Below are positions 1 to 6,000 of a DNA stretch of 64,000 nucleotides, piece after piece. Position 1 is the stretch's first letter; each line of letters starts with the position of its first letter. Source of the stretch: an uncultured Alphaproteobacteria bacterium (GTDB lineage: Bacteria; Pseudomonadota; Alphaproteobacteria; Rs-D84); assembly GCA_944390125.1 (NCBI GenBank), contig CALXOX010000001.1:120427-184426 (forward strand), in the 5' to 3' direction. Made by a program: the position numbers.

Positions 1-3000
1 CATTTCCTGTCAAATTAGAATTATTTATTGCGCCACCAAAGGTTCCATAATTTTTTTGGAAAGAAGCATGAGAAATATCTGTTATATGTCCAGTATCTGC
101 ATTATAAATTGCCCCACCAATTCCTGACGAATTTGCACCAAACAACGCGGTACCCTCTTCAGAAGTTATCGCCATTGTACCAGCATTATAAATTGCTCCG
201 CCAGCCGTTGTTGCACTGTTGTTCGTGTAATTTCCTGCAGCATTTACAATTTCACCAGTATTATAGATAGCGCCACCAAATGACTTACCCGATTCGGATT
301 TAGCTGAATTACCAGAAAAGTTTCCGTTTATTGTCAAAAACCCTTCGTTATAAATTGCGCCACCTAATGCATCCGTACCGTTTGTAGAAACAGAATTATT
401 AGCAAAGTTTCCATCAACAGATACCGAAGCTCCCTTTACATTTTCTGTGGCATTTTTAATAGAAATTGCTCCACCAGTAGACGCTTTTTTATTCTCTGAC
501 GTATCGGTAGTTGCAACAACTTTATTGTTTGTAAAGTCGCCAACAATGCTACCAATAGTTACACCATAACCTTGTTGCCCTTCGCGATCGGCACCACCTT
601 TAATATATATAGCTCCGCCATTTGCATAACCATCACCGGTTGCGCTGTTACCAGAAAAATCACCCACTATTTTGCCAATATTCACCGCACTTGGCCCATA
701 TTGACCTTCTATATGCATTGCACCACCACCAGCAGAAATTTGCGAACCACTTGTATACTGAGTTTCACCCTCGCCCGCATAAGTTGCGCTTACACTATTA
801 TTTGAAAAATCGCCATTTATTTCTTTTATATCTGTACCCGCGTACAATGCAAACACGCCGCCATTTGCAGTTGCTTTCGAGGCCGTATCAGAAGAATTCG
901 AAACAGAATTATTATTAAACGTACCCGTTATGCTACCCAACGCACCATTACTGTAAATCACAGATCCCTGTCCAAAAACTTCAGATTCATATCCGTCAGT
1001 TTTAGATAAAGAAATAGAATTATTTTCTACGACACCAGCATCAACATCTACATTCGCATAAGAATCACCCGAAGGAATTTTTAATATTCCACCAGCTTGT
1101 TTTTTATTAGTCGCAGAATAAGAATTATTGCTCCAATTTTCTACATCTGCGGGATTGTTTACCGTAACGGACTGATCTGCAGCAACTGCAGGCATAACAG
1201 CCAGCGCAGGCAAAACAGAACAAATCTTAATCAAATCGGATAAATGTTTGTATGTAGACATACTTTCTCCTTTTGTAAATAGCGCCCTTCGAGGATAGCG
1301 TACCACAGAGGTTTGAAGTTTCAAGATAAAATATTAAAGAAAAAGTCCCCAAAAACATGGGGACCTTTTTATTTAGAAATCATATCTAAATTTCAACATA
1401 CCTGTCTGAGAAGTATAATCTTCGTGTACATCTAAATCATAATTCAAAGACACTTCTAAGCCACGATATTGTGCAGACAATCCCAATCCGAACTCGCCGC
1501 CCAAACGAGACAGACGTTCCGCATCCAGGACATACGACAGGTTACCTGGCGCAGTAATAGTTGCAATCGCCGCGTCCGACAAGAAGTCATACGTTGCTGC
1601 AGCACGTAATTCTGGGCGCAACTTCAGTTCAGAATCAGATTTGATTTCAAACGCATATTTTACACCGGCGCTACCGGTCAAATAATTCGCATCTGCAGCA
1701 TCAACGTGCCCCAACAAAGCATCGTATGCATCTTGAGAAACATTCAAATAGCGAACACTCAATTCTGGTGTTAAACCAAATGCAAAGTCATAACCAGCAG
1801 CTATCTGTCCGCCAAATGAATTTACATCATATTTAGATTCATACACAACGCCGTATGGGTCTGACGTTTCCGTATAATCTGACATCGTATAATTCAATGC
1901 AGCGTTTACATACCATTCTGCAGGTTTATACTGACCATATACAAATACACTATTGGATTCTATCGCGGTATCACGAGATGTAGAATCTACATCTGTATCG
2001 TTATATGCGTAACCAATACCCAATGTGTACTTTCCATCAATCAAAGTATCCGCGCCAACGGAAATACCAGAAGTATTGCCTGAGAATTTGCCGTTATACT
2101 TTGAATGATTATACAGTCCTTGTGCCCAAACACCGTAATCAGCCTTTGCTAAATCGCCACCGCTGCGACCAACTGATGTTCCAGCCATACGTCCTGCAGC
2201 CAAAGATAATATCTGATTCTGTACGGATGTAGACACAGACTGCGCAACAGTTTTATCTTCTGGATTTAGCTTTGCAGTTTCTGCTTCAACACGACTTACA
2301 TTACCATCGGCAAAATCTTCCTGAACATGTAATGAAATTGTATTCAACAAATCGTTTTTAGCATTCGCTAAAACACTGACTGTATTTGCAGCACCTGACG
2401 ACAGGTTTGTATTGCTTACAATTTCATCAACAGACTTTGTTGAAACAACAATGCTGTTATTATCATCAAATGAAATATTGTAAACAGCATCATTGTACGC
2501 AATCTTTTCAACAGGAACAATCGTTCCAATATCATACGTACCAGCTGCCCCCAATACCAAGTCCAACAACCCATTTTGTCCGACAAAAATATCTGACACC
2601 TGAATTTTAGCAAAAGATTCTGCATTCATAATTTTTGCGGCCAATGTGCCGTCCAAATTTATGCTATTTTGCTGAACGGTTGTTGTTCCGATATCCAACG
2701 TCGCGCCTTTTGCAATATTCAGTGTTCCATCCCCAGTAATTCCACTGCCTATTTTTGTTGTGCCTGAAACGACATCTAACACGCCATCATTGTGAATGTC
2801 ATTTGCGATGCCATTCGCTGTATTACCAGAGAAAACGTTATTACCAGATAATTCTATTTTTGCGACGCTTTCGTTATAAATAGCCCCACCATTGCGATTC
2901 GCAGAATTACCTGTAAACACAGCATTTTCAACACTAGTATTTACAAACGTGTTATAAATAGCACCACCGTAAGTTCCAGCGGAGTTATTCGCGAACATAA

Positions 3001-6000
3001 CACCTTTCAAATTTAGTTCCGCTTTTGAATTAGGCTTTAAATAATCGGTGGACGTATCATAACCTTCTGGCGCAGGTTCTTTAGAATTGATAGTTTTATT
3101 AGTTTCTGAACTATACCAATCTGCACGTGTTGAAATCGCACCACCTGTAACTGTAGAAGAATTATTCACAAACACAGCGTTCTCGACATTAGTTTTTGAA
3201 GCACTACCAGCAAATATAGCACCGCCACCATCAACACTTGTATTTAAGTTGTGATTATCATAGCCGTCATCAGCTATTTCACCGGTTACCATATTTCCAT
3301 CAAACAACGTTTGAGAAATATTTATTTCCATATCCCCATAATTTGCAATTGCCCCGGCACCTGCAATTGCCTCATTACCTGAAAATTCTGTACCAACAAT
3401 GACAGCCGCGCCCTTACCTGTACCTTTGTCGTTATAGCCCGAATATAAAGCGCCGCCCACCAAAGCAGAATTATTGGAAAAAGAACTATTTTCAATACGA
3501 ATCTGTCCCTTTGAACCTATTGCACCGCCATACCCTTCAGTTTTATTGCGTGCAAAAGATGTATTTTCAACAGTCAGCTTTGCATCAATGTCATTGTAAA
3601 CAGCACCACCTTCTACCACAGCGGAATTTTCTGCAAACTTACCTTCTATGTCCATAATTCCTTCGTTATAAATGGCACCACCTTTAACATCAGCCACATT
3701 TTGTACGAACACAGAGCCGTCTAAATCTGTTACAGCACCTTTATCAAATATGGCGATTGCCCCGCCAACATTTGCCGCCTCGTTTCGTGAGAACGATGAA
3801 GAATCTATCTTCAGAGTAGAATGCATATCTGGCCGTTCTGGATCTTGCCAAACTATTATTGCCCCACCACCATGTGTTGCCTCTGTACTTGTCGCTTTAT
3901 TTCCTGTGAAACTTGCATTATCCCCAATTTCTAAATTCCCATATTCTAATCCGATAGCACCGCCCAACCCAGCAACATTACCTTGGAATAAAGCGGCATC
4001 TCCAATAGTTATATTTGTATCATCGGAAGCAACATCTCCATCAGCTAATTTTATGTATAACGCACCCGCTCCCCAAGCTTTATCTGTTGCTTTATTATCA
4101 ACAAATTGAACGCCATTTCCAATTTTGAAACCGTTCAAAGCTTTAATTACACCACCGGCAGAAACCTGTGTCTCATTATTTCTAAACAACGTTCCATCAG
4201 CCACCGATACATTTGGTGTATTATAATTGATAGTTATGGCACCACCGCGCGTACTATCTGAGTTTACAAAATTTTCGACTATACCGCTATACTCTTGACC
4301 ATCGGCCGCCATATTATCTGCGAAAGCCGGCAAAATTGCCAAAGCCGGTAAAACAGAACAAATCTTTAACAAGTCTGTTAAATGCTTGTATTTAGACATG
4401 CAATCTCCTTTTTGTGAGCAAAGTTTGTTTTCACGGCATACAAATAGCGATTAAATTCTTTATTTTTAGAAACGAACCCCTAAAAAATATGCCGCCAATC
4501 CATGTGGATATGGCGGTCGGGGAGTTAAGAAAATCAACCAAATCGTGACCCCGCCAGTCTTTGGGTTGCCCTTGTTTTATAACTGACGGCTCCCCGACCT
4601 AAGCGGGGGTATTCAAGGATAATAAAAGGCGCAGAAAGCGCCGCATACTATTCCTTGTGCGGATTACGACATAACACATGCCGGATTTGGTAAGGGTTTT
4701 CTTACGACCCCGAAGCCACATCCCTGTGGATTCGAGAGATATTATAAAATGTAAACGTGTTGAAATCAAAGAAAAAAATTGATTGCAAAACGAAAAAGCA
4801 GAATATATAATAGTGCGCACATTGGGGCATAGTTTAACGGTAGAACTCCGGACTCTGACTCCGTCAGTGTTGGTTCGAATCCAGCTGCCCCAACCAAGAT
4901 TGACAACCGTTCAGTTCCATCAGGATGTTGAACGGTTTTCTTATTGAATATACTAATTTTTTATTCTTCAATTCGCAGTTCGAAAGTAGCAGGTTCAAAA
5001 GTGCGTGTTTTTGTTCTACTTTCGAACTTTTGAACAGATCCGACGCGTGTGATGCCACAGATAATAACGATTCAACTGTTGTTATAAAGTCGTCATCTGC
5101 CTTGGAATGTGCTTCTAAACGCACGCCTACATCATACAATTCTTTCTCTATATCATTCTTTTTATCGGCGTATTCTTCTTGTGTAATACTGCCGGTCAGT
5201 AAAAAATCTAACAGGCGACTTCTTTTGGACTTTAGGGCATCTTGTTTTTTACGCAGATTGTCTATCTCTGCCAGCGCATAGGCATTTTCCGCCTGTGATA
5301 TATTGGTCAGACACTGTACCACTTCCTGCATAATATCGCGTGGAAAAGAGAGTTTATTCAAAATTTCATCCTGAATCTGCTGCAACAAATCGTTTTCATT
5401 AACCGCTGGTTGTGTACAATTACCCTTAAAATGTGAACAAGATAGATATGTATAGGTCTTGCCACTGGGCTTTGTCTTTGTGTCGCTGGTAATCGCACAC
5501 CCACAATCAGCACATTTTATCAGACCGCGAAACACATACGGCTTTTCTGCATATTTAAATCTGGTACGATTCTTGCTATTCATTATCGCCTGACACTTGT
5601 CAAACAATGTCTTATCAATTAATGGTTGATAAATATGTGGATAAAGCGCACCTTTAACGTTCATCATTCCATAATAAAAAGGATTATTTAATATATTAAA
5701 TACCGCGGCCTTGGTAATAGGCTTCCCACTGATTTTATTTGTCAGCCCCCAGGCGGCGGCATTTTTAACCAGTTCACCAATCGTATATAAGCCAGAGGCA
5801 TATTCTTCAAATAACCGTTTAATCCCCATGGCGCGTTCTGGGTCAACAACTATGATCGGCTTGTTATTGTCGTCGCGTCTGTTCAGATAGCCCAGCGGTG
5901 CTTGACTTTGCCAGATGCCTTGTTTGGTGTTATAGTCAATACTGCGTTTTACATTATCACGCAAATTACCGACATAGGTTTTTGCGGCAAATACACCCAA

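Follow-up and report, generated by a model that had tools for sequence, protein, structure and literature searches.

The window analyzed here, a stretch of 64,000 nucleotides from an uncultured alphaproteobacterium of the Rs-D84 lineage (GenBank assembly GCA_944390125.1, contig CALXOX010000001.1, positions 120,427 to 184,426 of the forward strand), begins with two adjacent minus-strand genes, A and B, that encode type Va autotransporters with a passenger of the polymorphic membrane protein (Pmp) repeat type. In our reading, to which we assign a probability of about 0.8, A and B are old paralogues that likely serve as adhesins, their shared N-terminus is a signal peptide maintained by selection, and blocks of gene A have been shuffled by recombination. 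Gene A (1373..4399) is a complete open reading frame (ORF) of 1008 amino acids plus a stop codon. Gene B (1..1261) starts at the ATG at 1261 and is cut by the start of the window, which leaves 420 amino acids inside it; this arrangement had already been recognized from the DNA in an earlier inspection (the sequence-only reading). A metagenomic contig, L027 (ENA ERZ28614775, 139.6 kb), matches the window base for base across 4399 nucleotides and carries the full gene B at 13139..16234, encoding 1031 amino acids. An apparent strain variant of gene B, a 723-amino-acid call on L028, was discarded because it reflects a scaffolding gap filled with N; L029 carries an identical gene B. No further paralogues were found in the window: a hidden Markov model of the family, run against all ORFs of at least 150 amino acids, matched genes A and B only, and the large ORFs at 21385..25089, 31083..33158 and 35022..37445 are devoid of Pmp or autotransporter domains.

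Two short motifs define the passenger. Gene A comprises 12 GGA[ILV] and 18 FxxN motifs, while composition-preserving shuffles yield means of 0.30 (maximum 4) and 3.1 (maximum 8), respectively. Full-length gene B has 11 and 15 (shuffle means 0.42 and 3.6), and its fragment inside the window 7 and 8. The motifs combine into FxxN-x(3-14)-GGA[ILV] pairs, ten in A and nine in B, which are spaced approximately 26-28 residues apart, or roughly one rung of a beta-helix. In gene A they are confined to residues ~50-530, and residues ~530-1008 make up a motif-poor stalk, a helical linker and the barrel. The proteins had been described as built almost entirely of repeats. The repeats are real, but only approximately half of each protein consists of them. 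The Pfam profile Chlam_PMP (PF02415; cut-off 20.6 bits), whose detection of the repeats had been named beforehand as a test, scores 66.3 bits for gene A, 33.9 bits for the gene B fragment and 22 bits for the full gene B protein. Autotransporter (PF03797; cut-off 26 bits) reaches 120.5 bits at residues 757-988 of A and 109.4 bits at residues 780-1011 of B. The POMP_repeat profile TIGR01376 (cut-off 15 bits) matches gene A with 48.7 bits and gives no match for the gene B fragment. The proposed combination of a Pmp-type passenger and an autotransporter barrel is thereby confirmed, although for gene B the barrel lies outside the window and is only seen on L027.

The AlphaFold model of the gene A protein has a predicted local distance difference test score (pLDDT) of 78.5 and a predicted template modelling score (pTM) of 0.70. 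It comprises a right-handed parallel beta-helix (residues 30-655), of which the repeats form the predicted rungs, helices at residues 657-737 and 12 long strands at residues 754-1007, with a linker helix (718-737) just before the 12-strand barrel. The best matches of this barrel among solved structures are EspP, BrkA, NalP, EstA, Hbp and AIDA-I, in line with the 12-strand type Va barrel that had been expected at the C-terminus. A sequence search of solved structures returned a single repeat-level match, the protist protein 7w5z. Projected onto the minus strand, the repeat region with its FxxN/GGA[ILV] rungs spans 2720..4312 (codons ~30-560), the conserved stalk and helical linker, with the last beta-helix turns and an invariant ANDIHN motif, 2132..2719 (codons ~561-756), and the translocator barrel 1376..2131 (codons 757-1008). 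The invariant aspartate of the ANDIHN motif, D534, follows the last FxxN. In chlamydial Pmps, a conserved aspartate of 'rung 0' seeds the asparagine ladder (PMC10715098).

The N-termini of A (MSKYKHLTDLLKICSVLPALAILPAFA) and B (MSTYKHLSDLIKICSVLPALAVMPAVA) are identical at 21 of 27 residues. The sequence-only reading had called the first 30 residues nearly identical; the similarity does exist, but over codons 1-27 it amounts to 78% identity in protein and 77% in DNA. Moreover, it extends well beyond this pair. The pattern M[SA]xYKHLxDLLKICSVLPALA[IV]MPAxA heads dozens of homologues of 935-1398 amino acids (45-87% identical to A), and its hydrophobic core, SVLPAL..MPA.A, is kept in still more distant family members of other genomes. 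Across the window and all loci compared, this core is restricted to the autotransporter family. By inspection, the N-terminus opens with a basic n-region, followed by a hydrophobic core of 15 residues and an AxA motif ahead of the mature protein; the putative signal peptide of gene A covers codons 1-27 (4319..4399, minus strand), with cleavage expected after AFA. Between two gene A alleles, the proportion of synonymous differences (pS) in these codons is 0.83 and that of nonsynonymous differences (pN) 0.05, i.e., synonymous sites are saturated. Because of this saturation and the family-wide conservation, the shared N-terminus is best explained as a family-specific predicted Sec signal peptide of 27-28 residues that is kept by purifying selection. 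A lipoprotein anchored through the conserved Cys14 was considered and rejected by inspection, as LKIC is no lipobox and no hydrophobic segment lies ahead of the cysteine.

Overall, A and B are approximately 40% identical, with 25-36% in the repeat region and 50-60% in the stalk, linker and barrel; the stalk and linker taken alone reach 50-58%. In a neighbour-joining tree built on the C-terminal 470 residues, A clusters with genes of other species (L001, L004 and L006) and B with those of L005 and L007. Since each gene groups with genes of other species and the two share only ~40% identity, the comparison points to A and B being old paralogues. In Enterousia-like genomes, the locus shows a syntenic order of a CBAH gene, tRNA-Gln, one or two autotransporter genes, a 235-amino-acid gene, an 838-amino-acid gene and IF-1. 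The number of autotransporter copies at the locus is one or two per related genome; in the metagenome-assembled genome (MAG) BRZ_EC bin9, two copies are located ~19 kb apart. The best 120 homologues all belong to the same family and all derive from Enterousia-like metagenomic contigs. The family thus appears to be a separate, lineage-restricted subfamily that, within our sampling, is confined to Enterousia/Rs-D84-like gut alphaproteobacteria.

Variation between strains is concentrated in gene A. Two strains of the same species, L031 (GCA_949282285.1) and L033 (BRZ_AP), were compared with the window strain. In both, approximately 7 kb downstream of the gene pair is 98-100% identical to the window strain, and the synonymous divergence (dS) of gene B relative to L031 and L033 is 0.015-0.019. 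In both strains, nucleotide identity falls from 99-100% outside to 50-88% inside an allelic mosaic block of gene A (2160..4739, minus strand), which covers the leader, the signal peptide, the passenger and, in one strain, the stalk, with an inner breakpoint at ~3000. The divergence starts at ~4739, which is ~85 nucleotides beyond tRNA-Gln and directly after a promoter-like -10 box. In L031, the divergent block ends at ~3000 (codon ~460), with a dS of 1.7 inside it and 0.064 in the remainder of the gene (codons 467-1008). In L033, it ends at ~2160 (codon ~740, where the barrel starts), with a dS of 1.4-1.8 inside it and 0.011 in the barrel alone (codons 747-1008). Between L031 and L033, dS is 0.02 in the N-terminal block and 1.39 in the middle block. 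As these two strains share the N-terminal block yet differ in the middle block, the three gene A alleles are mosaics that combine, over two blocks, no fewer than two old sequence types. The ratio of nonsynonymous to synonymous divergence (dN/dS) is ~0.12 in every gene A block, which argues for old, functional alleles shuffled by recombination rather than for recent, fast positive selection. Hence, the recombination anticipated for an adhesin family is encountered in the gene A leader and passenger between strains, but not at the N-terminus shared by A and B. This conspecific mosaicism of the leader and passenger is new here. It provides a population-genetic marker for strains in human and animal gut metagenomes and possibly also tracks host or partner specificity.

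Following the established mechanism of type V secretion, Sec would export the protein to the periplasm, after which the barrel would be inserted into the outer membrane, normally assisted by BAM. The linker helix would then occupy the pore while the passenger passes through to the outside, folding in the direction from C-terminus to N-terminus. The conserved stalk is a likely autochaperone-like folding template, and the variable tip would be displayed at the cell surface. At the population level, homologous recombination would shuffle old, deeply diverged blocks in the gene A leader and passenger, with near-identity maintained in the barrel, gene B and the flanks. By analogy with the chlamydial Pmps, for which an adhesin role has been described (PMC9289746, PMC10715098), and with other beta-helical autotransporters, A and B most likely mediate adhesion, with either a host surface or a partner cell as the target. 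A bolder version of this interpretation would make the family the main attachment device of the Rs-D84/Enterousia lineage, for which an obligate dependence on a partner or host is assumed. The gene A tip would in that case comprise a small number of ancient allele classes under balancing or frequency-dependent selection that are exchanged by recombination and set partner or host specificity, parallel to but independent of chlamydial Pmps, and the signal peptide and the structured RNA leader (sRNA-Xcc1-like; see below) would act as a dedicated export and regulation module. We regard this version as speculative, and as a whole doubtful.

Several other explanations were weighed. The similar N-termini had been attributed to a recent tandem duplication or gene conversion, with the pair acting as a phase-varying contingency locus. 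A and B are indeed tandem neighbours on one strand with 21 identities among their first 27 residues, and gene conversion is frequent in adhesin families. However, silent sites are as diverged at the N-terminus as elsewhere: among the 20 identical residues of codons 1-27 other than methionine and tryptophan, 50% use the same codon, compared to 40-58% in the rest of the gene. The same N-terminus is moreover conserved throughout the family and across species, and A and B, at ~40% identity, each have closer relatives in other species than in one another. Contingency finds no support at the locus either: neither homopolymers of at least eight nucleotides nor simple-sequence repeats were found in or upstream of genes A and B. 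The longest homopolymers are A7 and T7, the sole simple repeat is a (TA)4 within gene B, and Tandem Repeats Finder reported just a 1.9-copy 18-mer. We therefore consider this explanation hardly credible. A common N-terminus of neighbouring genes is no proof of gene conversion when that N-terminus is a signal peptide under selection. A and B might also be true members of the chlamydial Pmp family that were horizontally acquired from Chlamydiae, given that the Chlam_PMP and POMP_repeat profiles match and the overall domain order is the same. Yet the Pmp middle domain PF07548, described as characteristic of the chlamydial family (PMC11166332), was detected neither on the whole proteins A and B at E ≤ 1 nor on the isolated residues 520-756 and 520-1008 at E ≤ 10. 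For this reason, A and B fall outside the chlamydial Pmp family, strictly defined. Furthermore, fewer than one in three PF02415 proteins are chlamydial (PMC11166332), the best 120 homologues all come from the Enterousia-like contigs mentioned above, and both genes have the same GC content (0.40) as the genome around them. All of this makes a chlamydial origin very unlikely.

As to function, the main rival to adhesion is an enzymatic passenger, because lyases and tailspikes have the same fold. The passengers would then be secreted or surface-bound carbohydrate-active lyases or hydrolases with a pectin-lyase fold. The resemblance to those enzymes is, however, at the level of a generic fold, with just 9-14% sequence identity, and solved passengers of autotransporter adhesins match about equally well. 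In addition, neither Pfam nor NCBIfam detects a catalytic family, and in Pmps the FxxN and GGA[ILV] residues belong to the structural core (PMC10715098). An enzymatic role is thus improbable, and we favour old paralogous autotransporters with a likely adhesive function. A number of points do weigh against this preferred interpretation. Adhesion is deduced from the architecture alone and the cleavage site of the signal peptide is putative, following from the AxA rule only. The barrel is modelled with moderate confidence (pLDDT 50-78) and includes a loop, residues 941-964, that is disordered. Finally, only three gene A alleles were compared, and blastn and blastp searches against all collected loci and proteins, including gene B, did not reveal where the divergent blocks in gene A came from.

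The leader of gene A contains two candidate regulatory features on the minus strand. A promoter-like site (TTGATT-17-TATAAT, 4741..4769), a consensus match only, is positioned just upstream of the point where the strains diverge. It is followed by a structured element resembling sRNA-Xcc1 (4502..4604), located ~105 nucleotides upstream of gene A and succeeded by a terminator-like hairpin; it may act as a small RNA of its own or as a leader of gene A. Its match to the Rfam family RF02221 (42.6 bits, E = 2.5e-6) remains below the gathering score of 53. In 11 related loci the element is likewise conserved ahead of the autotransporter gene and shows compensatory base pairs. Another copy occurs in the window inside a low-GC island (9680..9780, minus strand), and none was found in the part of the window from 13.5 to 64 kb. 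Further copies are situated downstream of autotransporter genes in two loci (L027 16443..16540 and L007 14008..14111). The one on L027 is part of a 1.15-kb insert downstream of gene B and just outside the window (L027 16150..17300) that also includes ORFs of 127 and 106 amino acids; this insert is present in the window strain and absent from L031 and L033. The ribosome-binding sequence AAAAGGAGA precedes the start codon of both genes, with the AAGGAG Shine-Dalgarno of gene B at 1267..1272 (minus strand). Between the genes, a hairpin of 12 pairs followed by a T run (1340..1369, minus strand) resembles an intrinsic terminator. Given this hairpin and a Shine-Dalgarno sequence for each gene, A and B are probably transcribed separately.

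Upstream of gene A, the 3' end of tRNA-Gln(CTG) (4823..4896, plus strand) is the insertion site of an 8.6-kb island of low GC content (0.30-0.34; window 4900..13455). The island's gene for a large serine recombinase (4864..6408, minus strand) runs into the tRNA gene with its last codons, and the island also harbours an AbiL-like defence pair (AbiLi, 7141..8331, 232 bits; AbiLii, 6395..7144, 28.7 bits). No long direct repeats were found at the island ends. The island is missing from the conspecific strains L033 and L034. It does occur in a MAG of Candidatus Enterousia intestinigallinarum from chicken, where its proteins are 72-99% identical (mostly 89-99%), whereas the housekeeping genes of the same MAG are mostly 71-86% identical (one reaches 93%). 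As the island is absent in conspecifics yet shared with a genome whose housekeeping genes are mostly more diverged, we conclude that it is horizontally mobile. The idea that the gene A allele was transferred together with the island was rejected, since L002 has the same island and an autotransporter passenger unlike the window allele. At the equivalent of the insertion point in L033 (9100..9500), three tandem units of ~170 nucleotides stand directly ahead of an intact tRNA-Gln. Each of them ends in a fragment resembling the 3' end of tRNA-Gln, and these units may be scars of earlier integrations.

Elsewhere in the window, a SurA-like periplasmic chaperone with SurA_N and rotamase domains (17168..18580, minus strand) and a 775-amino-acid protein with CarboxypepD_reg and OmpA-like domains (28422..30749, plus strand) are envelope-biogenesis or outer-membrane components in the vicinity of the autotransporter locus. 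The ORF at 21385..25089 (minus strand) encodes 1234 amino acids with only a borderline ankyrin-repeat match (Ank_4, 22.8 bits; cut-off 22.7). Its conservation is 69-82% in several Enterousia-like loci and 44-50% in two that are more distant. The product could be effector-like, which, if true, would be of interest in a host-dependent lineage. The minus-strand ORFs at 31083..33158 (691 amino acids) and 35022..37445 (807 amino acids) have no Pfam match at E ≤ 0.001.

The host can be placed as a Candidatus Enterousia-like gut alphaproteobacterium of the order Rs-D84. The closest GTDB genomes are gut MAGs of human, chicken and ruminant origin that bear the label Candidatus Enterousia or uncultured Alphaproteobacteria. 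The window has its housekeeping ORFs in the same order as these MAGs, at 80-94% identity. Rs-D84 genomes are mostly smaller than 1 Mb and lack respiration and most biosynthesis, and a dependence on partner cells has been proposed (PMC12306168). No attachment apparatus is known to have been described for Rs-D84/Enterousia, and the words 'autotransporter' and 'adhesin' are both absent from this genomic survey. A search combining the lineage names with autotransporter or adhesin terms returned no paper that brings them together among the top-ranked literature matches. Genes A and B are concrete candidates for the attachment of Enterousia/Rs-D84 cells. As Pmp-repeat autotransporters beyond Chlamydiae have already been catalogued, the architecture is not in itself a novelty; what gives the pair its value is the host, an uncultured lineage with genomes below 1 Mb that is proposed to live off other cells.

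Compared to known systems, A and B most resemble the chlamydial Pmps (PmpA-I of C. trachomatis, Pmp21 of C. pneumoniae) in architecture. Both are of type Va and carry a beta-helical passenger with FxxN and GGA[ILV] pairs about one rung (26-28 residues) apart. The chlamydial Pmps likewise form a multigene family in a reduced genome of ~1 Mb, with strain variation concentrated in the passenger. They differ in that A and B replace PF07548 with a stalk that bears the invariant ANDIHN and ~80 residues of helices, have their own conserved, predicted family signal peptide, lack a detectable poly-G phase-variable tract and belong to a gut-lumen alphaproteobacterium rather than a chlamydia. The class to which A and B belong is that of the non-chlamydial PF02415 autotransporters, which occur in more than 100 non-chlamydial species (PMC10715098) and, like the Akkermansia glycaniphila protein (PMC11166332), combine Pmp repeats with a classical barrel. 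Within this class, the A/B subfamily is distinguished by its own predicted signal peptide and stalk. The solved beta-helical passengers of the autotransporter adhesins pertactin, Vag8, UpaB and Ag43 show no detectable sequence similarity to the A/B passenger and have another rung motif. The rickettsial Sca proteins (rOmpA, rOmpB, Sca1 and Sca2) are a family of autotransporter adhesins from host-dependent Alphaproteobacteria with reduced genomes (PMC9289746) and share the barrel family with A and B, but their passengers are unrelated, contain no Pmp motifs and are in some cases alpha-helical.

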